Source: a virus (lineage: Duplodnaviria > Heunggongvirae > Uroviricota > Caudoviricetes). From it: a stretch of DNA of 38,860 nt. Numbering within the stretch: position 1 is the stretch's first letter; every line of letters begins with the position of its first letter. The stretch is from IMG/VR virus record IMGVR_UViG_2713896899_000004. The stretch is one strand, 5' to 3'. Shown here in pieces: positions 2,864 to 16,165 of the stretch. The notes under the pieces are model-generated. The model was not told where the DNA came from. It ran no database searches and worked only from the letters and a program-made list of their open reading frames with translations. The translations under genes and the position numbers were made by a program.

Positions 2864-3247
2864 ATGCTGAACGAAAAACGTTCTATACAAACAATTCGCG
2901 ATTGCACGAGTGTTATCGCAACCCATGTGCTGAATAAGCGCAAACTTGAGGTGCGTAAACTTAACAACGATGCGACAGCGCCAAAAGACACTCGCTTCAT
3001 CGTCACTTTCAAAGACGATGTTGAGAATGCTGGTGCCAGTGTAAAACCGTTGGCTGAAGCGATTTTCCTGAACGATCGTGTGCGTTTCATTGTGAAGCCA
3101 GCAAAACAATACCCTGAATTAGCACGGTTTAGTGATCAATTCTCTGAAATTATTGAGAGTGCAATTCGCCGCTTTCTTAATACTCATGGTAGCATTGTCA
3201 GCAATACAACTGCTGATGGTACTGCTCTAAGATGGCACCTACACTAG
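2864..3247 (+). CDS. Hypothetical protein
   Basis: ORF with RBS aaggtgg upstream of ATG. Confidence 0.5.
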   Translation: MLNEKRSIQTIRDCTSVIATHVLNKRKLEVRKLNNDATAPKDTRFIVTFKDDVENAGASVKPLAEAIFLNDRVRFIVKPAKQYPELARFSDQFSEIIESAIRRFLNTHGSIVSNTTADGTALRWHLH

Positions 3248-3984
3248 AACGCACATACTCTAAAAATCTTGATGAGTTTCCTCACCGTGGGGAAACTCGC
3301 GTTTCACGTTTTGGCTACCTCATCAACGAAGCATCGCTTTTCAAAATATCTGAAATAACCATCATCGAGCCTGATGATGATATCTGTCTGTATATCCTGA
3401 TGGAGAAAGTTGGAGCACGAGATCAGGGTGAACTGATGGACTTCATTCTGGACAGAGGCGAAGATGGAATGTCTGATTCAGACATTATTCAAGCTATTCT
3501 GCGTTCCGACATGCTCGATCAGAGCAGAAACACGATAGCAGGCAGAATTGCCTTGCGTGAATACACATTCATCGAGGATGGGGTAGAGATTGACTGCTAT
3601 CAGATTGCAGGTGTTGAAACAGAAAGAGCAATAAGGCAAAGGGGGCTGTGCAACCTCACGTATCGCTTCCTCCTTCATTGGTACGAACATCTTGTCTGTG
3701 ATTACAATCAGACCATCCCTGGCGCAAAAATTTGGGCCGGCCCATTAATGCGAACAGGTGATGTAAGAATTTACAACGCAAAAACTGAGACGTTCGAGGA
3801 TGTGTTAGGCGAGTATGGAATGGGAAAAGAAACCGGCTTTTTGCCGTGGAACAGAGGATTGTTGCTTGATCCAGAATTAAGCTCTTGGTTCCCAAACAAG
3901 GTGCAAGTTAACATTGAGAAATTTATCGTACTTATCATCTCCCGCAAAACAAGAACTCCAGTAGGTTTATACCTAAAAGATTAA
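3232..3984 (+). CDS. Hypothetical protein
   Basis: 250-aa ORF overlapping the upstream stop; followed by a terminator. Confidence 0.5.
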   Translation: MAPTLERTYSKNLDEFPHRGETRVSRFGYLINEASLFKISEITIIEPDDDICLYILMEKVGARDQGELMDFILDRGEDGMSDSDIIQAILRSDMLDQSRNTIAGRIALREYTFIEDGVEIDCYQIAGVETERAIRQRGLCNLTYRFLLHWYEHLVCDYNQTIPGAKIWAGPLMRTGDVRIYNAKTETFEDVLGEYGMGKETGFLPWNRGLLLDPELSSWFPNKVQVNIEKFIVLIISRKTRTPVGLYLKD

Positions 3985-3989
3985 AAATC

Positions 3990-4012
3990 AGGCGACTTTG
4001 GTCGCCTTTTTT
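3990..4012 (+). terminator. Rho-independent terminator
   Basis: Stem aggcgac / gtcgcct with loop tttg, followed by a T run. Confidence 0.6.
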
Positions 4013-4160
4013 GTTAACTGCCATTGATTCTCGCCTAAAAATTCTAAGGCAGCACCTACCATTTAACCTTTACACAGCAGCCGTAGGCATTTAGGCTATA
4101 TCACATATAAGAAAACAAGTTGTTTCAGACGATAATAATAGACGCAAAGGGAACTATCCA

Positions 4161-4829
4161 ATGACCAAGATCTTTGTGGTTGGCGGCACAAAGGGCGGGC
4201 CTGGCAAATCCACCGTTGCCCAGCAAATTGCCGTTTGCCTGAAAGTCAAAAAGAAGAAGAAGGTTTATGTCACCGATATAGATATTCAGCGCACGACAAC
4301 GAGCTGGTGTGAAGACCGTCGACAGAACGAAGATCTTGAGCTGATTCCTTTTGCATACGTACAAGATGACATCATTAAGCACCTAAAATCGCTTCAGGGT
4401 AGAGCTGAGTATGTAGTGGTAGATGCTGGTGGCTTTGACTCCGAAATTCAGCGACAAGCGATGCTGATGGCCGACATTATCATTATCCCGCTGCGTCCTA
4501 AGCGTCGTGATTTGAAATCTCTGCGTGACATCGATCCTATTATCGACAATGTTCGCAATGTAAACGATAAAGTGAAGGTCCGCGCGGTCATGAACCAGTG
4601 CCCGGCTTTGCCATCACAAGTATCTCGCATTCTGGCGGCTAAAGAGATTGTCGAGACGTTTGGCATCGAGTCTGCGCCTGTCAATCTATATAACCGCAAC
4701 GTCTACGATGATGCGGAAGAGGCTGGTCGTTCTATCTTTGAAATGACCGGTAGCGAGCGCGACAAAAAGGCGGAAGCCGAGTTTGAAGAATTTGTAGATT
4801 ATCTGTTGAGTCTGGAGGAAGAAGAATAA
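4161..4829 (+). CDS. parA: ParA/MinD-family partition ATPase (small type)
   Basis: Deviant Walker A GGTKGGPGKST near the N-terminus; 222 aa; translationally coupled (TAATG) to a small downstream ORF. Confidence 0.75.
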   Translation: MTKIFVVGGTKGGPGKSTVAQQIAVCLKVKKKKKVYVTDIDIQRTTTSWCEDRRQNEDLELIPFAYVQDDIIKHLKSLQGRAEYVVVDAGGFDSEIQRQAMLMADIIIIPLRPKRRDLKSLRDIDPIIDNVRNVNDKVKVRAVMNQCPALPSQVSRILAAKEIVETFGIESAPVNLYNRNVYDDAEEAGRSIFEMTGSERDKKAEAEFEEFVDYLLSLEEEE

Positions 4830-5188
4830 TGTCCATGAAAATGGGTGACCTAGCAAAGCGCAAAGAGCCTGATGCACCGGCTAAGAACACAACTCCTTTG
4901 CGCCAACCAGTCAGACCACAGGGACGCCCGACTCGTGGCAAAGAGAAAATTAAAAGCCGCACAATGTCACTGGAAGACGAATACTTCGAACTGCTGGAGA
5001 TGATGAAGTTCATCCCTCGTTTCGAGAAGTTCACTCGTTCTGACGTGATTCGCGCAGCCATTTTCCATCTGGCAGAGAAGTCACCGCAGGAAATCGAGGA
5101 CATCGTGAAACTGAACGAGGCGATCACAGCTGCCGATGTCACGATGCGTACCGATGAAATTAAACGCGAGTTAATGAAGAAAGGTTGA
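4829..5188 (+). CDS. Putative partition adaptor / centromere-binding protein (ParG/ParB-like partner)
   Basis: 119-aa basic N-terminus, coupled to parA; role inferred from operon position only. Confidence 0.4.
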   Translation: MSMKMGDLAKRKEPDAPAKNTTPLRQPVRPQGRPTRGKEKIKSRTMSLEDEYFELLEMMKFIPRFEKFTRSDVIRAAIFHLAEKSPQEIEDIVKLNEAITAADVTMRTDEIKRELMKKG

Positions 5189-5191
5189 AAT

Positions 5192-5212
5192 AAGGGAGGG
5201 TTCTCCCTTTTG
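5192..5212 (+). terminator. Rho-independent terminator after the par operon
   Basis: Stem agggag / ctccct with loop ggtt, followed by TTTT. Confidence 0.5.
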
Positions 5213-5221
5213 GGATATTAC

Positions 5222-5962
5222 ATGAATAAAAAATTTATATCGGTTGTGGTAGCAATACTGCTAGCTATAATTGCACTGCTGTTAATTTTTGTTTTTTATT
5301 TCCTTGATGCAACTATAGCTTCTTCATTAAAGTGGGCTGTCGGTATTGTAACGGCGTCTGTTATTTCACTTACTATAAAATCAATCTCCCAAATAGCTAA
5401 ATTACAAAATTTTTTATTAAATAATCCAATTGGCTTGTTTCTCAAGAGAAATTATGAAGAAGCCGAAGAGTTTAATCGAAAAATAGCTATGGTGGTGGCT
5501 AAAGTTACTCTGAGATTTCTGATAGTGATCGGTTATCTCACTGAGGGTACAAACAATAATGAAAAAGAGAAACAGAGTGCTAAGTCTAGACAAAAGACAG
5601 TCGTGGACTTGTATCTTCTTAACGAAAAGAAAAACCTCTTAAAAGGTAAGCTGGCAGGTTTGTTCATGGTTGTTATTTCTCTGGCTTATATAACATATTC
5701 AGACTCTTCAATATGGTTTATAGCCCCGGGGGTTATTGTTTTCTTTGTGAACTCAATGAAAGAAGAGGTTTTAACTTACAGAGTTAGAAAAGGTTTTTTT
5801 GGACGAAATGTAGATGAGGCTTTGCAATTAATTAAATTTATTCATGAAAATATCGATGATATAAATAATGATGGCAATGGTGGATCAAGAAGAATTTTAA
5901 ACAACAAAGAACAAGAAGTAAAAGAGTTTGTTATGGGGTGGAACGGTGAACAAAGTGCCTGA
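5222..5962 (+). CDS. AT-rich multi-pass membrane protein (accessory cargo)
   Basis: Start set at first ATG (5222) because the track's TTG start lies in the terminator hairpin. Four to five hydrophobic helices; visibly AT-rich codon usage compared with neighbours. Confidence 0.5.
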   Translation: MNKKFISVVVAILLAIIALLLIFVFYFLDATIASSLKWAVGIVTASVISLTIKSISQIAKLQNFLLNNPIGLFLKRNYEEAEEFNRKIAMVVAKVTLRFLIVIGYLTEGTNNNEKEKQSAKSRQKTVVDLYLLNEKKNLLKGKLAGLFMVVISLAYITYSDSSIWFIAPGVIVFFVNSMKEEVLTYRVRKGFFGRNVDEALQLIKFIHENIDDINNDGNGGSRRILNNKEQEVKEFVMGWNGEQSA

Positions 5963-6365
5963 ATTAGATGAAATTACTAAAAAATTGAACAAGGCACTTG
6001 ATGTTGTCTTGCTGAAATATCCTCAGCGCACTTCATTTGGCGTCCTTGTTGGTTTTATACTGGTAGTTTTAATTCACACCTTTCGCTTTGCTTTGACAGC
6101 TTATGGTGTATTTGTGGATTGGATGCACTATTTGTTTTGTGAAGTTGTAGGGGTCTTGGTTATGAATGCAAAGTCTATGTATGAGGCATTCAACGGCACA
6201 GCACTGGACGAACGTCTGGGCACTCTTATGAATGTAATTGATGCACGTAAAGATTTATCTAAGGCTCAAAGAGATTTGTTAATCTACGAAATCTTGAAAA
6301 ATGAAATTGATTCTTTATCCGCCAATCAAGTTGAACAAGTCGGTAAAAAAATAACTGACAAGTAA
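5928..6365 (+). CDS. AT-rich membrane protein, overlaps upstream gene
   Basis: Two hydrophobic helices; start codon uncertain (TTG 5928 or GTG 5946); followed by a large palindrome. Confidence 0.4.
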   Translation: MLWGGTVNKVPELDEITKKLNKALDVVLLKYPQRTSFGVLVGFILVVLIHTFRFALTAYGVFVDWMHYLFCEVVGVLVMNAKSMYEAFNGTALDERLGTLMNVIDARKDLSKAQRDLLIYEILKNEIDSLSANQVEQVGKKITDK

Positions 6366-6370
6366 TTCAA

Positions 6371-6429
6371 GAACCTGCTTCTGTATATAAATACTAAGTT
6401 ACTTATTATTATTTATACGGAAGCAGGTC
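6371..6429. repeat. Large imperfect palindrome (about 59 bp) containing an ATAAGT-type dyad
   Basis: ctgcttc...gtataaata arms mirrored around ctaagttacttatt; possible terminator or operator. Confidence 0.5.
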
Positions 6430-6545
6430 TTTTCTCTGCTGACTTCCCAGATACATTCCCTTCCGTTTCTACTTCCAAAAACTGCCACCAATCGCTATCA
6501 TCCGCTCATCGCGATAAGTAACTAACTACCTACCAGGTGAGCCAC

Positions 6546-7286
6546 ATGAGCCAAATCTTTTTCGATACCATCGACAACGACCAGTACGACTTCATGACAG
6601 AGTGGAATACCGCTGTTATGGACAAGTGGGTCGCTGAAAACATTGGTTTGTCGCGTTGCAAAGACGAGGCTGAACTCTTCGAGACAAAGTGGTTTGATTA
6701 CCGCGACATGCATCCTCTGATGGCCACCTGTCTTTTTACGGAGGCATACAAACGTCAGTACTCAAATATCATGCTGACGCACGGTCGCGAACACTTTGAA
6801 ACAGCTCCGTTCACCACCGGGTTAAAACGTCTGCCTTATCAGGAGTTGTCGACTGCCAATAAAACGTCGCTATGGAAAGCACGCCAGTTTGCTGACCGCT
6901 ATTGCTGCTCATACGACTACTTTATTTCCACCGTTCTTTCCGCAGCAGCACGACGTTTGTGGGACAAGTTGCCGCGCCCACAACATTTGTGGCAGCCAGA
7001 GTTGATTGAGATATTCGAAGAGAAATTAGCCAGACGCGCAACAACCCGTCTGGATGACTCTCTGGTTAGCTTTAAGCATATGGGAGACATGCAGTTCAAC
7101 CCGATTCAGGAAAGCTATTTTGAGTGGATTCTGGAGCGTTTACGCACCATCCCCCGCAGCAAGCGCATACGCGCAATTTTCTCCGCTATCTGGCTAATGG
7201 AAATCGTTCCAGAGCGCCTTATTTCCGCCCACTTTCCAGAAGAACTGGAAGAAGCACGGCGGTTTATTGATCCCCTATCTAATTAA
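6546..7286 (+). CDS. Hypothetical protein (first gene of the replication block)
   Basis: ATG at 6546 with RBS aggtga 6 nt upstream; 246 aa. Confidence 0.5.
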   Translation: MSQIFFDTIDNDQYDFMTEWNTAVMDKWVAENIGLSRCKDEAELFETKWFDYRDMHPLMATCLFTEAYKRQYSNIMLTHGREHFETAPFTTGLKRLPYQELSTANKTSLWKARQFADRYCCSYDYFISTVLSAAARRLWDKLPRPQHLWQPELIEIFEEKLARRATTRLDDSLVSFKHMGDMQFNPIQESYFEWILERLRTIPRSKRIRAIFSAIWLMEIVPERLISAHFPEELEEARRFIDPLSN

Positions 7287-7329
7287 CTAATACTAGAAAA
7301 CAATTTGTTTAAAAAACAAAGGAAAGCAC

Positions 7330-8670
7330 ATGACAGAACTTTGCCATACAGGACGCGGGCTGTCCGAAGAGTTTGATGAAGATTTCCAGAACAGACTGAC
7401 GGCATATTTTTGTCGTGATCACGAGTTTCTTACTCGTGCGGGAGATCTGGTTGTGCCTAGCCAATTTGCCAATGCGGCCAATGCCATATTGGTTAATATG
7501 GTTTCGGGCTATTACCGTATGTACAAGAGCGCGCCCTCTTCATCTGCAATTCTGGATATGCTTAAGCGTGCGAAACGCGATAAGACTATCCGTGAGGAAC
7601 TATTCGCCGATGTTGTTGCTGCGTTTAAGCGCATCCTTGCAGAAAAATTGTCCGATACCTCGTACATGGTTGACCAAGTATCAACCTTCGCAAAAAGCGT
7701 AGCGTTTGATGATGCTCTGATTAAGGCTGCTGAACTGAAAGAGAAGGGCGACTTTCAGGGGGCGATGGCAATCATGGCCAAGGTTCAGCAGATTGGATCG
7801 AACGAAGCGACCGGAATCTACGACTACTACACCTCCGCAAGTGAGCGATTGAAAGCGCGTGAATATGAGGCTTCAGAGGAGTATGTACCAAATAGTATTA
7901 CAACTGGACTCCCTCTGCTCGATAGGTTGCTGTACCAAAAAGGCTGGGCGAAGCGTGAAATGGTGCTCTTCATGGGGTTCGCTAAATCCGGTAAATCGAC
8001 CGCAATGGGTGAGTTTTCCATAAACGCAACGCTTGCTGGTTACAATGTTCTGTATCTCTCGCTGGAGGTTCACACCAACATTTTGTCCGACCGTTTTGAT
8101 GCAAGATTGTCGGAGACGGAAATGTCCAAGCTGGTGGAACGGCGCGATGAAGTTCATCGTAAGTTGGCAGAGTTGGGAGCCACTAAGGGGATTGGTAGTT
8201 TGTGGGTTGTTGAGCGTCCGTCAGGAAGTATGTCACCGGCAGATCTGGACCGTATGCTTAACAGTATGAAAGCCAATGGCATGGTGCCTGACATGGTTGT
8301 TGTCGACTACGCAGATTTGATGCGTGCCAGTTATGACCTTCGTGATGATCGCGCCAACATTCGTAGTATCTACACCGATTTACGTGCTCTTTATGACAAA
8401 CATAACGTTGCTGGGATCACGGCATCGCAGACAAACCGTGAAGGTGGCGCGTCAGAAGTTGCCACAATGATGCACGCTGCCGACAACATCGAAAAAGTAC
8501 GTATTGCTGACCTGGTAATAACGATCAACAAAACCGAAGAAGAAGAAGCGAAAGGAGAGGCTCGTCTCTACTTTGCTGGTTCACGTAACCAGCAGGGAGG
8601 GATCAGCATTCGCGTTAAACAAAACCTCGAACAAATGCGCTTCATTGAGCGAATCTTAGACGTTACCTAA
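7330..8670 (+). CDS. DnaB-like replicative helicase
   Basis: Walker A GFAKSGKST, Walker B VVVDYADLM, and ITASQTNREGG / RLYFAGSRNQQGG matching the DnaB C-terminal RecA-fold pattern. Confidence 0.65.
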   Translation: MTELCHTGRGLSEEFDEDFQNRLTAYFCRDHEFLTRAGDLVVPSQFANAANAILVNMVSGYYRMYKSAPSSSAILDMLKRAKRDKTIREELFADVVAAFKRILAEKLSDTSYMVDQVSTFAKSVAFDDALIKAAELKEKGDFQGAMAIMAKVQQIGSNEATGIYDYYTSASERLKAREYEASEEYVPNSITTGLPLLDRLLYQKGWAKREMVLFMGFAKSGKSTAMGEFSINATLAGYNVLYLSLEVHTNILSDRFDARLSETEMSKLVERRDEVHRKLAELGATKGIGSLWVVERPSGSMSPADLDRMLNSMKANGMVPDMVVVDYADLMRASYDLRDDRANIRSIYTDLRALYDKHNVAGITASQTNREGGASEVATMMHAADNIEKVRIADLVITINKTEEEEAKGEARLYFAGSRNQQGGISIRVKQNLEQMRFIERILDVT

Positions 8671-8751
8671 AAAATAAGCGTGGAGAACACCTCCACGCTT
8701 GATTCATTGGTGAAACAACTTTTCTTTTGCCAAACCACAAAAGAAAAACAC

Positions 8752-9933
8752 ATGAGCCTTTATGTTATATCAACATTTAGGTTGGTCACAATATTGCCTG
8801 TTAAAAGTGGAATTATCGTGAGCGAGCTGAAAGAGCTAATTGCCGAATTAGATTTTGAACAATGGTTGGATACTGAAGGTATCGTTTATCGACGTGGAGG
8901 TGTGAGTGCTCGCGGTCGTGAAGTGAATATCAAGGAGTGTCCGGTATGCGGCAGCTCCAACTGGAAGGTATATTTCAATCTGACCAGTGGTGTCGGCAAA
9001 TGCTTTGCTGGTGATCATCCCGAAGAGATTCAGTTCAATAAGCTGGTCTTCCTCAAGCACTACAGCGGCAAATCACGACGACAGTTCGAGGAATATGTGC
9101 AGAACGCCCTTCTTTCCCAGGGGTGGGCACCAAAGAAAGAAGAGATAGTGCTTGCAAGCACAGTCGAGTTAGAGGGACCACTTGCACTCCCTCGTCATTA
9201 CGAACTTCCTATAGATGGCCGTCTTCCAGACTATCTGGTTGAACGAAACATATCGCCTGAAATGGCAAAGTATTTTGACCTACGATACTGCGTCGAAGGT
9301 AAGCACGCATATGTAGATCCGTATACAGATCAGGTTAAAGGACAGATATTCGATATGCGAATACTGATACCGGTTTACGATCTGGATGGGGTAATGAAGA
9401 CATTTCAGGGACGAGACATTACCGGTACAGCAGAACGCCGCTACCTCTTTCCTATGCAGCTTCCAGCTTCAGGTAAGTTTCTCTACAACGGCCATAATGC
9501 GGTCGGCAAACAGACTGTAGTTGTCTGTGAGGGGGCGTTCGATGTTATGGGGGTTAAACGAGCTATTTTTGATGAAGAAACATTACGTGATTACGTGGAA
9601 CCAATAGGAACGTTCGGGATGCATCTATCTGGCAACACCACTCAGGATGCAGAAGATCAGTTGGGCGCGTTCCTGACGCTCAAGGCGCGTGGATTACGTA
9701 ATGTGATCATGATGTGGGATAGTGAAAAGCAAGCTATACGAAACACTATGGCCGCAGCCAGGCGACTGACCAGTATCGGTCTTAATGTCAAAGTTGCGTG
9801 TTTGGGTGAGGAAGGACTCGACCCAGGCGGTGCAACGCCAGAACAAATTATCAAAGCCTATTATCGGGCAAAACCGTATACCAAACAGTTGGAGTTGCAA
9901 AGCAAGGTTTTGGGCATTAAGGCTCTATCGTAA
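8752..9933 (+). CDS. DNA primase (zinc-ribbon plus TOPRIM)
   Basis: CPVCGSSNWKV...C..GDH zinc-ribbon; TOPRIM-like VVVCEGAFD and MMWDSEK. Start uncertain (8680 in track, 8752 after aaaacacATG, or GTG 8818). Confidence 0.55.
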   Translation: MSLYVISTFRLVTILPVKSGIIVSELKELIAELDFEQWLDTEGIVYRRGGVSARGREVNIKECPVCGSSNWKVYFNLTSGVGKCFAGDHPEEIQFNKLVFLKHYSGKSRRQFEEYVQNALLSQGWAPKKEEIVLASTVELEGPLALPRHYELPIDGRLPDYLVERNISPEMAKYFDLRYCVEGKHAYVDPYTDQVKGQIFDMRILIPVYDLDGVMKTFQGRDITGTAERRYLFPMQLPASGKFLYNGHNAVGKQTVVVCEGAFDVMGVKRAIFDEETLRDYVEPIGTFGMHLSGNTTQDAEDQLGAFLTLKARGLRNVIMMWDSEKQAIRNTMAAARRLTSIGLNVKVACLGEEGLDPGGATPEQIIKAYYRAKPYTKQLELQSKVLGIKALS

Positions 9934-14246: not shown

Positions 14247-14321
14247 GATGGTGTAGCTCAGCGGTAGAGCAGTTGGCTGTTAACCAACTGGTCGGTGGTT
14301 CGAATCCACCCACCATCGCCA
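14247..14321 (+). tRNA. tRNA-Asn (anticodon GTT)
   Basis: Hand-folded cloverleaf: 7-bp acceptor gatggtg/caccatc, anticodon loop ctGTTaa, T-loop ttcgaat, 3' CCA encoded; differs from the E. coli tRNA-Asn sequence. Confidence 0.8.
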
Positions 14322-14323
14322 AT

Positions 14324-14399
14324 GCCGGTTTAGCTCAGTTGGTAGAGCGCCTGCCTTGTAAGCAGGATGTCAGCGGTTCGAGTCCGTTAACCGGCACCA
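14324..14399 (+). tRNA. tRNA-Thr (anticodon TGT)
   Basis: Acceptor gccggtt/aaccggc, D-arm gctcagttggtagagc, anticodon loop ctTGTaa, T-loop ttcgagt, CCA encoded. Confidence 0.8.
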
Positions 14400-14623
14400 A
14401 TACAACGATAAGATCATTACGGTTAATCGTCGTTCATGTGCACAATGACTGGTCGAAAGGTAGTGATCTTACCGTTGTGGTGGATTCGCAGACTGATGCG
14501 ATAGCTTTCTTGGATGTTAGGGAAATGCGGCCGCAAATCTTCCCTTTCGCGAGCGGTGATCGTCCGTAGTCCTAATTGGCTGCACCGTATGCCGGAGATT
14601 CAGTACCGGCCACCACAACGGCC

Positions 14624-14710
14624 GGAGAGTAGGGAGCATGGTGCTCAAGCGGTCTTGAAAACCGCCCCATTGCGCAAGCGATGATGGTTCGATTCCATTA
14701 CTCTCCGCCA
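14624..14710 (+). tRNA. tRNA-Ser (anticodon TGA), class II with long variable arm
   Basis: Acceptor ggagagt/actctcc, anticodon stem-loop gcggt-ctTGAaa-accgc, long variable arm, T-loop ttcgatt, CCA encoded; D-arm slightly irregular. Confidence 0.65.
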
Positions 14711-14712
14711 GA

Positions 14713-14790
14713 CACAGCGTTGAGCGGTTTGGCCTTTTAATCACCCAGATTAAGACTCCGCTAACATAAACCAGACCGCTCAACGCTGTG
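14713..14790. repeat. Long hairpin (about 20-bp stem, 38-nt loop) immediately 3' of tRNA-Ser
   Basis: cacagcgttgagcggt (14713-14728) is the exact reverse complement of 14775-14790. Confidence 0.6.
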
Positions 14791-14864
14791 ATTGACAATT
14801 ACGGCAGACGTTCTTAACCATAGCTTGCTAACATCCTAGCAACACTTTTTTCAGCGCAAAATTC

Positions 14865-14887
14865 AAAGGGGCTTCGGCCCCTTTTTT
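14865..14887. terminator. Bidirectional rho-independent terminator
   Basis: aaaggggc-ttcg-gcccc-tttttt; closes the tRNA island on the plus strand and the minus-strand ORF 14903-16165. Confidence 0.65.
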
Positions 14888-14902
14888 GTTGAACAGTGCA
14901 AT

Positions 14903-16165
14903 TTACTTTACATAGTCGCCCAGTTTTAATATTTCGCGCTTATATTCTTTAACCATGTCACAGGATTCAATGTAAATTCGATGTAAAAGACTGCCGTTAT
15001 CTTTATTTTCATTTATCTTAATTAGTGCTAATTTATATTCATAGTCATCAAATGCCACAATTAAATGGTGGCCTGGGATTATATCTTCGTCACTCTTAAA
15101 GTATATATCTTCAAGTATGTAATCTAGTTGATTAGATTTTCTTTTCTCGATGTAATCTTCAGCCATAGCTATTACATCATTCCTGTCATTTAACCTGTTT
15201 TTTTCGGAAGGCACATCTTCGTAATGTTGCACGATTGAACAACCAATAAGGCGTGGGATGTAAACGTCAAAATGAGTAACTCTATCATTCGCGGTTTTAA
15301 GTAGTTCCTCAAAGTAGTTTCTTACATGTAAAGGCAACTTCTCAAAGTAATCATTAATTATAGGAGAACAAGGAGTTTTATAATTCATAAGAACCGACGG
15401 TACGAGCTTTGGGTGTCGAAACATCCAGTCCCTTTTAACGTCCGATGGAACATAATAACTTTTAATGATATTATCAAAATAATTTATCATTCGAGATTTG
15501 AATATTTTGTTGAATCTAAGGTTTATGAATGTATCCAGATAAGGCATATTTGAATAAGCATCATCAAAAAATATTTCATCATTGAAAAAATCATATTTAT
15601 TCAATAAACAACACAGTTTTTCCGAATTAATATGTTCACAATAATCGATTTTTAATCCAAAGATAGCAATGATCAACTTCATCTGAGGTGGGATTTTAAA
15701 AATTAATTGTGACACATACGCTCTTTTTTCCTTGAGACATTCCCCATCAATATAAAATGAACCATCCACATACTCAAATATATTAATAATATGCTTCACA
15801 TACTGTATTACCTCATGCTGTCTTACCAATGGGTAATATAGTCTATGTAACTCATCGCTGTTTAAATTAATTTTGTGTTTATCGATAATTTGTTTTGCAA
15901 GAAGACATAACTCATCATGTTGATTTAATAAGGAATCAAACCATTGTTTAAATGCACTCTTTCGCATTTCGAACAATGATTCAGTTGTTAATTGAAGGGC
16001 TGAAAAAGCTGCTTTTGCACTTTTTCTCGCTTCGTAGGCATTCCATGCTGTTGCTATAAAAGCAAATGCTGTAGCCAATGTTCCAACAGTTTGACCATTT
16101 AAAACAACCCAATCCCAAAAAATGACGGTGAGCAGTAGTATAATAATGAAAATTAAAAAAGGCAT
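14903..16165 (-). CDS. AT-rich membrane-anchored protein of unknown function (candidate defence / abortive-infection cargo)
   Basis: 420-aa ORF on the opposite strand from almost all other genes; N-terminal hydrophobic helices then a large Asn/Lys/Tyr/Phe/Ile-rich soluble domain; strongly AT-rich; own terminator. Confidence 0.55.
   Translation of the reverse strand: MPFLIFIIILLLTVIFWDWVVLNGQTVGTLATAFAFIATAWNAYEARKSAKAAFSALQLTTESLFEMRKSAFKQWFDSLLNQHDELCLLAKQIIDKHKINLNSDELHRLYYPLVRQHEVIQYVKHIINIFEYVDGSFYIDGECLKEKRAYVSQLIFKIPPQMKLIIAIFGLKIDYCEHINSEKLCCLLNKYDFFNDEIFFDDAYSNMPYLDTFINLRFNKIFKSRMINYFDNIIKSYYVPSDVKRDWMFRHPKLVPSVLMNYKTPCSPIINDYFEKLPLHVRNYFEELLKTANDRVTHFDVYIPRLIGCSIVQHYEDVPSEKNRLNDRNDVIAMAEDYIEKRKSNQLDYILEDIYFKSDEDIIPGHHLIVAFDDYEYKLALIKINENKDNGSLLHRIYIESCDMVKEYKREILKLGDYVK

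Follow-up and report, generated by a model that had tools for sequence, protein, structure and literature searches.

The viral DNA considered here (the window: 38,860 nucleotides (nt) of one strand, IMG/VR record IMGVR_UViG_2713896899_000004) carries at positions 5222-6429 an AT-rich island that is, very probably, a mobile two-gene cassette lodged in a cargo hotspot of an SSU5-like phage-plasmid. The two genes, A and B, occupy a slot that runs from the stop codon of parB to the terminator of the par operon, between conserved genes. Judged by sequence comparison, the A/B pair is one allele of a polymorphic phage-plasmid module and not a one-off insertion; the prototype, SSU5, carries another as SSU5_035/036. 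What the pair does is a separate matter. That it protects the lysogen against other phages, and is a defence system in the broad sense of the term, could well be right, although the proposition stops somewhat short of being probable.

The identity of the element follows from its matches. Positions 3000-9000 are 100% identical to the E. coli plasmid p009_B (NZ_CP048306.1, 110 kilobases (kb), non-mobilizable), and the flanks of the island are 97% identical to the Escherichia phages Cyrano, PhiR41_1 and CMS-2020a and 83% identical to Salmonella phage SSU5; the element accordingly reads as an SSU5-like phage-plasmid. Its genes in this region all lie on the + strand, in the order: two small open reading frames (ORFs; 2864-3984), parA, a parB-like gene, A, B, a palindrome, gene X, and the genes of a DnaB-like helicase and a primase.

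The slot is best appreciated through its other occupants (the loci compared carry labels of the form L002). It is empty in L002, the E. coli plasmid pZ1323HEC0016-2, whose backbone is 98% identical: there the palindrome follows the parB stop codon after ~30 nt, and 1.18 kb is absent. The stretch missing from this empty-site relative (5189-6366, + strand) is the whole exchangeable cassette, comprising a small hairpin, A and B. Other relatives hold something else at the same place: a reverse-strand GIY-YIG protein of 255 amino acids (aa) matching PD-T4-3 (L010; E 1.3e-23), a 564-aa KAP-type NTPase matching PDC-S49 (L006; E 4.6e-22), a DUF2971 protein matching PDC-S31 (in Cyrano and, besides its A/B pair, in SSU5; E 3e-41 and 2e-33), an IS1, or pairs with the A/B layout. 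Being either empty or filled with known defence genes at the same position in relatives, the slot corresponds to the operational definition of a defence hotspot. A recent survey includes PD-T4-3 in its list of defence systems from SSU5-type elements in E. coli and Shigella, its position in the element not being stated (10.1101/2025.09.12.675607); no description of this particular parB-terminator slot was found in the literature searched. A preliminary description of this DNA, made from the letters alone, had taken the island for inserted cargo lying outside the partition and replication core. The empty site in L002, the different genes in its siblings, the mosaic pattern of identity and the prophage copies that lack par and rep genes (both taken up below) bear this out; no homology to partition or replication accessory proteins was found, and the composition of the island is atypical of the element.

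That composition can be put in numbers. GC content is 0.33-0.37 over 5200-6400, against 0.45-0.50 on either side; A and B taken jointly have 34.4% GC, the upstream sequence 47.5% and the downstream sequence 47.4%. Sixteen of 755 sliding 1144-nt segments are equally AT-rich, and all of them fall within this island or within another at ~14.5-16 kb. The low-GC codon usage that had been noted in A and B is also evident at third codon positions (GC3 0.29 and 0.34, compared with 0.46-0.56 for parA, parB, X, dnaB and the primase gene); the bias is therefore one of codons and goes beyond amino-acid composition alone. AT-richness is a property of every A/B allele (27-38% GC).

Cassette and backbone have separate histories. 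The backbone proteins ParA, ParB, X and DnaB of the relatives are 83-99.8% identical to those of the window, as against 26-58% for A and 37-71% for B (the window's own allele, L025, being left out of these ranges). L007 (pTLYA-2) is the extreme case, with a 98-99.8% identical backbone, a 32% identical A and a ~41% identical B. Over its full length, B is 44% identical to SSU5_036, ~41-42% to its L007 counterpart and ~72% to a Klebsiella allele, and A aligns with its counterparts only over residues 113-240 (blastp). The allele of the window itself recurs in L025, an Enterobacter ludwigii element, with 90% identity in A and 95% in B. Sliding nucleotide identity brings out the mosaic: the flanks agree with E. 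coli backbones at 96-100% and with L025 at 72-90%, while positions 5200-6350 agree with L025 at 88-100%. The changeovers lie at ~5100-5190, in the 3' end of parB, and at ~6350-6450, at the terminator; over 5100-5199 the identity to the E. coli backbone falls from 100% to 82-94%, which locates the left breakpoint in the last ~80 nt of parB. Synonymous divergence (dS) from L025 is 0.08-0.18 in A and B and 0.9-1.7 in parA, parB and X; because it is lower in the cassette than in the flanks, the cassette must have arrived far later than the two backbones diverged. At the level of sequence, these comparisons demonstrate exchange of the cassette between backbones by recombination, with breakpoints in the 3' part of parB and in or near the terminator hairpin, and the window's allele was swapped in recently from an Enterobacter-type element.

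The right edge of the slot deserves particular attention. The preliminary description had the island closed by a large palindrome. The palindrome is there, with arms at 6373-6393 and 6408-6428 and stem extensions to ~6369-6432, and it does mark the right edge; it is not, however, part of the cargo, as it follows parB directly in the empty L002, but is the backbone's conserved terminator (so identified on the evidence that follows) of the par operon. Together with the adjoining UCUUUUC it constitutes a putative terminator at 6373-6435 on the + strand, for which RNA folding, covariation and presence in 17 loci all speak. The RNA fold has a free energy of -26.8 kcal/mol (z -5.8), and none of 200 shuffles is as stable. 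Whatever the occupant, the palindrome is found once at the right edge of the slot in 17/17 loci compared; it also matches >600 plasmids in BLAST searches. In the alignment, 87% of cells are paired, compared with 33-52% when the partner columns are slid, and eight pairs have undergone compensatory (two-sided) change, a count that none of 500 shuffles reaches. The one-sided changes run from C-G to U.G or from U.G to U-A, that is, they pair only as + strand RNA. The combination of a stable hairpin, a UCUUUU run and changes that pair on the + strand only is why the palindrome is best read as an intrinsic (rho-independent) terminator ending the par operon, including any cargo that the operon happens to hold. 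(A technical note: a simple terminator scanner skipped the palindrome, the loop being longer than the scanner's limit of 8 nt.) By the same comparisons it is the right recombination anchor of the slot as well as its right edge. Interpretations of the palindrome as a genome repeat, a centromere or an origin were discarded, its variation fitting a + strand RNA hairpin and the window holding a single copy. In many plasmids of E. coli and Salmonella, a BLAST query with 6345-6433, which includes the palindrome, gives 3-4 matches to each record; only one copy exists in the 38.9-kb window, and the further matches lie outside it.

A par terminator had also been proposed on the 5' side of the island. 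A small GC hairpin does lie there, directly 3' of the parB stop codon (GGGAG-GGTT-CTCCC at 5192-5209, and with its TTTT at 5192-5213, + strand; -10.5 kcal/mol), but its folding energy by itself is insignificant (z -0.4). Hairpins of like shape and different sequence, each with a T-run, separate parB from A in L025, L004, L005, L007, L011 and L012, and one of like shape also stands 5' of A in the Pantoea prophage L018. The small hairpin probably acts as a terminator that leaks, or as an attenuator, and moves together with the cassette; it may set the level of A/B expression relative to ParAB. The SSU5-type alleles have no small hairpin; in these A begins 1-4 nt after parB, and the pairs must therefore be co-transcribed with par. 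In the window the parB-A gap is 33 nt, which holds only the small hairpin, its TTTT and a weak Shine-Dalgarno (SD) sequence and leaves no room for a promoter; a scan of 3900-6700 found no promoter-like sites on the + strand. In the plasmid (lysogenic) state, A and B would thus be expressed by read-through from the par promoter, the small leaky hairpin would damp their expression in this allele, and the backbone terminator would end the transcript.

The two overlapping ORFs originally called, A (5222-5962; 246 aa, ATG start) and B (5955-6365; 136 aa, GTG start), share 8 nt; the RefSeq annotation has both. B starts with GTG in the window and in the near-identical Enterobacter allele L025; the aligned codon is ATG in all other homologues shown. 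In each allele shown, a G-rich SD-like tract precedes the start of B, inside the 3' end of A. An SD-like tract within the 3' end of the preceding gene is the usual layout for translational coupling. The ratio of nonsynonymous to synonymous substitution (dN/dS) is 0.07-0.37 for A and B in those allele comparisons in which dS is unsaturated, compared with 0.01-0.07 for the backbone; on this ground both are real coding genes under purifying selection, evolving about ten times more freely than the backbone.

The membrane character of the two proteins, likewise part of the preliminary description, is upheld by hydropathy, which gives strong transmembrane (TM) segments in A (~4) and one TM hairpin in B. 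The topology prediction that was to check it places TM hairpins in both proteins, with both facing mostly the cytoplasm. A is made of two very different parts. The N-terminal part (residues 1-112; 5222-5557, + strand) consists of a TM hairpin (~5-27, 36-52) followed by a linker that is rich in K/R and includes a hydrophobic helix (88-106); with 17 K+R in ~91 residues, the linker is predicted to lie in the cytoplasm. The N-terminal part is unalignable from one allele group to another (beyond the window's own group, identity to the window is 18-47%); across homologues its length varies from ~35 to ~160 residues, and its dN/dS of 0.37 is the highest in the module. The C-terminal core (residues 113-246; 5558-5962, + strand) comprises a T-V-V-x-L-F-L-L helix, a TM hairpin (~144-163, 167-181), the motifs Y-R-[IV]-x-x-G-[FY]-F-G-x4-E-A-x-Q-L-x-x-F-I-x-x-N and, further on, G-G-x-R-[KR]-I, and a 65-residue tail, also predicted to be cytoplasmic. 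It was kept in 15/15 partners compared by alignment, with invariant K, R, G, G and E; blastp E values between the cores of distant partners range from 1e-8 to 1e-22, and the PHROGs family phrog_22270, itself of unassigned function, matches A at residues 113-240 only (E 2e-31).

B (5955-6365, + strand) is built of a 26-residue N-terminal helix, a TM hairpin (~27-47, 53-71) and a 65-aa helical tail. Its motif, P-x-R-T-[SA]-x-G-x3-G, includes the nearly invariant P23, T26, G29 and G33, and phrog_17322, another PHROGs family of unassigned function, matches it over positions 1-136 of 136 (E 2.9e-45). The predicted topology gives B a periplasmic loop of five uncharged residues and K/R-rich termini at both ends; taken together, the predicted periplasmic loops of A and B measure 3-8 residues and lack positive charges. 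AlphaFold models both proteins as all-helical, with low confidence (pLDDT 55 and 53). A core and B share the succession of helix, TM hairpin and helical tail, and one blastp comparison gave E 5e-4; a paralogous relationship between them was nevertheless rejected, profile-profile comparison giving a probability of 0.7%. In L013 (NZ_CP091592.1, a Klebsiella plasmid; 1743-2508) a frameshift within seven consecutive A's breaks gene A in two, precisely where the variable N-terminal part meets the conserved core; this could be sequencing error, decay or slippage. The frameshift is a one-off and does not mean that the commonest Klebsiella allele has decayed: the same allele is intact in two further plasmids, L032 and L033.

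How widespread is the pair? A tblastn search with B finds it in 74 PLSDB plasmids, all non-mobilizable and mostly of 105-113 kb (the largest is 217 kb), distributed over Klebsiella (51), Escherichia (7), Enterobacter (6), Citrobacter (4), Cronobacter (4) and Salmonella (2). These are 74 of ~710 SSU5-like plasmids; the remaining ~90% have near-identical par and rep genes and no pair. Of 5426 complete E. coli genomes, one has the allele of the window. When 1.84 billion representatives are searched exhaustively with a B profile, only 31 clusters come up, whose distant members keep the length, the N-terminal helix, the P-x-R-T-[SA]-x-G-x3-G motif, the TM hairpin and the helical tail. Wherever the contig of a distant B could be read, an A-like gene of 166-290 aa comes before B and overlaps it, or all but does so. 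Throughout (20+ loci), B follows A directly and in the same orientation, with an overlap of 1-14 nt except in L029, where there is a 15-nt gap.

Four loci have the pair without phage-plasmid flanks. L017 is the end of a Pantoea sp. prophage, where the pair stands beside tail-fibre, Caudo_TAP and O-antigen acyltransferase genes; L020 is the end of a Providencia prophage, where it stands between smpB and a gene set like that of L017; L021 is a metagenomic element with integrase and primase, in which a type IV Mrr enzyme is encoded 400 bp 3' of the pair; and L029 is a contig with phage replication genes. A different kind of transfer is recorded in a Pantoea agglomerans chromosome (L018, 9686-11335) and an IMG-VR contig (L026, 6817-8466), in which a 1.67-kb piece, 73% identical to a Cronobacter phage-plasmid and made up of a truncated parB, the small hairpin, A, B and the terminator palindrome, sits in a myovirus-type prophage. 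These two were not counted as an independent context, because the parB and terminator flanks betray capture from a phage-plasmid; for the same reason they are direct evidence of gene flow from phage-plasmid to integrated prophage. L023 was not counted either, being a fragment of an SSU5-like par region. This 16-kb contig (Logan ERR4405620) has on its par side homologues of window 2864-3984, a 59-aa parA remnant, parB and the A/B pair, and on its integrative side an integrase, a DUF927 primase, an antiterminator and a DUF2971/PDC-S31 protein; its make-up suggests a hybrid or a decayed element.

Why should a lysogen carry such a pair? The suggestion of a defensive role arises from the fact that this is mobile two-protein membrane cargo at positions that otherwise hold defence genes. 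The preliminary description had put forward an exclusion or toxin-like module; this fits the context, as defence genes share the slot, and is to that extent an informed guess. A and B would both insert in the inner membrane, with most of their mass in the cytoplasm, and would form a complex there, to which translational coupling, strict co-occurrence, an N-in/C-in topology, as given by the positive-inside rule, and short periplasmic loops (3-8 residues) all point. The variable A N-terminus would then serve as a specificity or sensor element, and the A core with B as the membrane effector. Abortive infection by permeabilisation or depolarisation of the membrane, with a logic like that of RexAB, is the preferred mode, and blocking of DNA entry at the inner membrane (superinfection exclusion) is the less likely one; abortive infection is favoured because the protein mass is predicted to be cytoplasmic and the sole hypervariable region is the A N-terminus. 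That A senses a phage cue and that its core and B thereupon perturb the membrane is offered tentatively, as a proposal that is more apt to be wrong than right. The same doubtful standing attaches to the wider conjecture that A/B represents an undescribed anti-phage family, an obligate inner-membrane heteromer whose hypervariable, mostly cytoplasm-facing A N-terminus reads the cue and whose core and B then open or collapse the membrane. If A/B is such a family, plugged as a cassette into the partition operon, its dose would be tied to par autoregulation and plasmid copy number, and the terminator would be the shared anchor for the swapping of immune cargo. One lead, a circumstantial one, comes from K. 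pneumoniae Kp1604, in which phage burst and plasmid uptake rose once the SSU5-like plasmid p2 had been cured, a phenotype not mapped to a gene (PMC8969562). A relative of Kp1604 p2, pKp1 (CP086286), carries an SSU5-type A/B pair.

A number of observations weigh against a defensive reading, or at any rate counsel caution about its details. PADLOC-DB 2.0.0, which includes RexAB, Abi, PD-, PDC- and HEC- systems, has no family for A or B at E values up to 1, and neither Pfam nor NCBIfam has a match for A or B of the window or for the 29 and 15 family members scanned singly. No solved structure of a relative of A or B was found; Foldseek searches of the PDB, made with low-confidence models, gave best E values of 0.19 (A) and 5.5 (B). 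The occupants of the hotspot are not always defence genes: that of L024, a reverse-strand 352-aa protein, has no match. Guilt by location is in any case a weak argument, since hotspots also hold toxin-antitoxin pairs, conversion genes and unassigned genes. No gene-wide positive selection was detected, dN/dS being <1 throughout. The division of labour into sensor and effector is deduced from conservation patterns alone. The small hairpin might terminate most par transcripts. Finally, a DefenseFinder family, DS-33, has been reported in Salmonella SSU5-type elements, and the pair may or may not belong to it. (DS-37 was considered as this pair and dismissed, because it consists of one gene and is associated with AbiH. 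Against PDB sequences, profile searches yielded nothing for the A core and, for B, weak matches, mostly to designed proteins, with E at least 0.014. No literature was found on SSU5_035/036 or on their protein accessions.)

Other functions can be entertained. The pair might be an addiction module, one membrane protein acting as toxin and the other as antidote, with post-segregational killing complementing partition. Its location directly 3' of parAB in the same transcription unit would suit this, as would the overlapping, translationally coupled layout, which is typical of toxin-antitoxin pairs; a genuine GNAT/DUF1778 toxin-antitoxin pair does occupy the neighbouring variable slot of the relative L015. 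Both proteins are, however, integral to the membrane (136-290 aa), and Pfam and NCBIfam scans reveal neither a DNA-binding antitoxin-like domain nor any toxin or antitoxin match that would place them in type II; ~90% of SSU5-like plasmids manage without the pair; the pair is also found at the ends of integrated prophages, which do not segregate; and the hypervariable A N-terminus would have no obvious role. Addiction is on balance improbable, with the proviso that many toxin-antitoxin systems also act as abortive infection, so that it overlaps the favoured reading. Superinfection exclusion of related phage-plasmids or other phages at the DNA-entry step, after the manner of T4 Imm, P22 SieA or HK97 gp15, without cell death and with the variable part of A matched to the ejection proteins of the excluded phages, we also consider unlikely. 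Predicted inner-membrane proteins expressed from a lysogen, and a locus as strongly diversified and allelic as a specificity determinant, are what it would lead one to expect, and in prophages the pair adjoins tail-fibre genes, a common site of exclusion and receptor-modifying morons. The predicted periplasmic loops of 3-8 residues and a variable A part that is mostly cytoplasmic or in the membrane nevertheless offer little surface to an ejection apparatus, and no homology to known superinfection-exclusion (Sie) proteins was found in PHROGs or PADLOC.

The chances are slimmer still that the pair changes the envelope with the help of neighbouring genes (lysogenic conversion) or times lysis in the manner of a holin and antiholin. 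Three prophage contexts do place it in a moron cluster, with an O-antigen acyltransferase (L017, L020) or Ail/Lom (L018), and a TM-hairpin protein of such a size has the general outline of a class II holin. Yet these neighbours differ between contexts, and A and B have no conserved partner beyond each other; there is no match to holin (Pfam or PHROG), Gtr or acyltransferase families; the pair lies in the par operon and not beside an endolysin gene, the lysis genes being elsewhere in the phage-plasmid, and a true holin made from the par operon during lysogeny would presumably kill; and absence from ~90% of relatives is not what one expects of a core lysis function. As for an accessory role in partition or replication, for example as a membrane tether for the plasmid or for a ParA/ParB complex, only position speaks for it: the pair lies between the par and rep modules on the same strand. 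Against this stand the relative with an empty site and a 98%-identical backbone, the unrelated genes that replace the pair at the same place, its occurrence in L017, L020 and L021 without any par or rep genes, its absence from ~90% of relatives, the want of any family match to par or rep accessory proteins, and the discordant histories of backbone and module. The comparative data effectively refute this reading, and hardly any likelihood is left to it.

The surroundings of the slot can be dealt with briefly. The transcription unit in which the cassette lies starts with parA (4161-4829, + strand), encoding a small Walker-type partition ATPase of 222 aa with Pfam AAA_31, MipZ, CbiA and ParA matches (RefSeq: AAA family ATPase) and 83-98% identity among relatives. 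The putative parB (4835-5188, + strand) encodes a small ParA partner of 117 aa, 92-99% identical among relatives, which has no Pfam match and corresponds to phrog_5111 (E 4.5e-80), in which function is unassigned. Beyond the terminator, gene X (6546-7286, + strand; 246 aa) is also of unassigned function. The region just 5' of parA varies among relatives as well: in the window it is taken up by two overlapping ORFs of 127 and 250 aa (2864-3984) without family match, and elsewhere by a HEPN-domain protein (L012, L025), the GNAT/DUF1778 pair already mentioned (L015), a helix-hairpin-helix protein (L013) or a reverse-strand 185-aa ORF (L005, L016). The sole other island of the window that is equally AT-rich (14247-16165; GC ~0.32) may be a second cargo site. 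It includes a reverse-strand 420-aa ORF (14903-16165) whose product has a hydrophobic segment at the N-terminus, lacks a Pfam match and matches PADLOC PtuB only weakly (E 5e-4); the ORF adjoins a cluster of Asn, Thr and Ser tRNA genes (14247-14710).

SSU5-group phage-plasmids are frequently met with in clinical E. coli, Klebsiella, Salmonella and Shigella, and most of their accessory genes lack annotation; a slot with one validated and two candidate defence genes is a useful place to mine for further systems. A/B is a rare and highly diversified orphan pair, mobile among phage-plasmids, integrated prophages and an integrative element, and not in PADLOC 2.0.0. It can plausibly be taken as a reasonable candidate for a defence or exclusion system of a new, membrane-acting kind, bearing in mind that such hotspot candidates are numerous; what appears unusual about it in their company is an all-membrane two-protein layout with no PADLOC 2.0.0 match. 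Should A/B protect against phages, it would do so by a new membrane-acting mechanism and would be immune cargo wired into a partition operon. Should it not, it would still be a clean case of cassette exchange at a conserved terminator.

Where does the pair stand relative to systems that are better known? Its true homologues are SSU5_035/036 (YP_006906667.1, YP_006906668.1), which occupy the same position in the order parA-parB-A-B-terminator, overlap in the same way, are similarly low in GC, and are 44% identical in B and 44% identical in the A core. They differ in the N-terminal half of A, which is unalignable (SSU5_035 has 214 aa, the window's A 246), and in the extra DUF2971 (PDC-S31) gene in the SSU5 slot; the SSU5 genes, too, are without assigned function. 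The small inner-membrane exclusion proteins T4 Imm, P22 SieA and HK97 gp15 act as single proteins, and HK97 gp15 is a moron of the tail-gene region. A and B are like them in being small inner-membrane proteins encoded by accessory genes of phages or prophages, and unlike them in forming an obligate pair with minimal predicted periplasmic exposure and no homology found.

RexA/RexB of phage lambda is a prophage-expressed, two-gene abortive infection system in which RexA is soluble and RexB has four TM segments; mycobacteriophage Sbash has an analogue in gp30/gp31. The likeness is one of two adjacent lysogen-expressed genes, the larger encoding ~250-280 aa and the smaller a membrane protein of ~140 aa, with a membrane effector. 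The sequences are not similar, none of the PADLOC Rex models matches, and A and B are both anchored by TM hairpins, B having two TM segments: the resemblance to RexAB is one of layout only, and not of membership. As for the slot, the closest parallels are the P2/P4 defence hotspots, reportedly described by Rousset et al. 2022; PD-T4-3, which occupies this slot in L010, reportedly goes back to Vassallo et al. 2022. In common with defence hotspots, the slot has a fixed position, swappable AT-rich cargo that includes validated defence genes, and recombination in conserved flanks. What sets it apart is that it lies inside the par operon of a phage-plasmid and that its right bound is the operon's own terminator.

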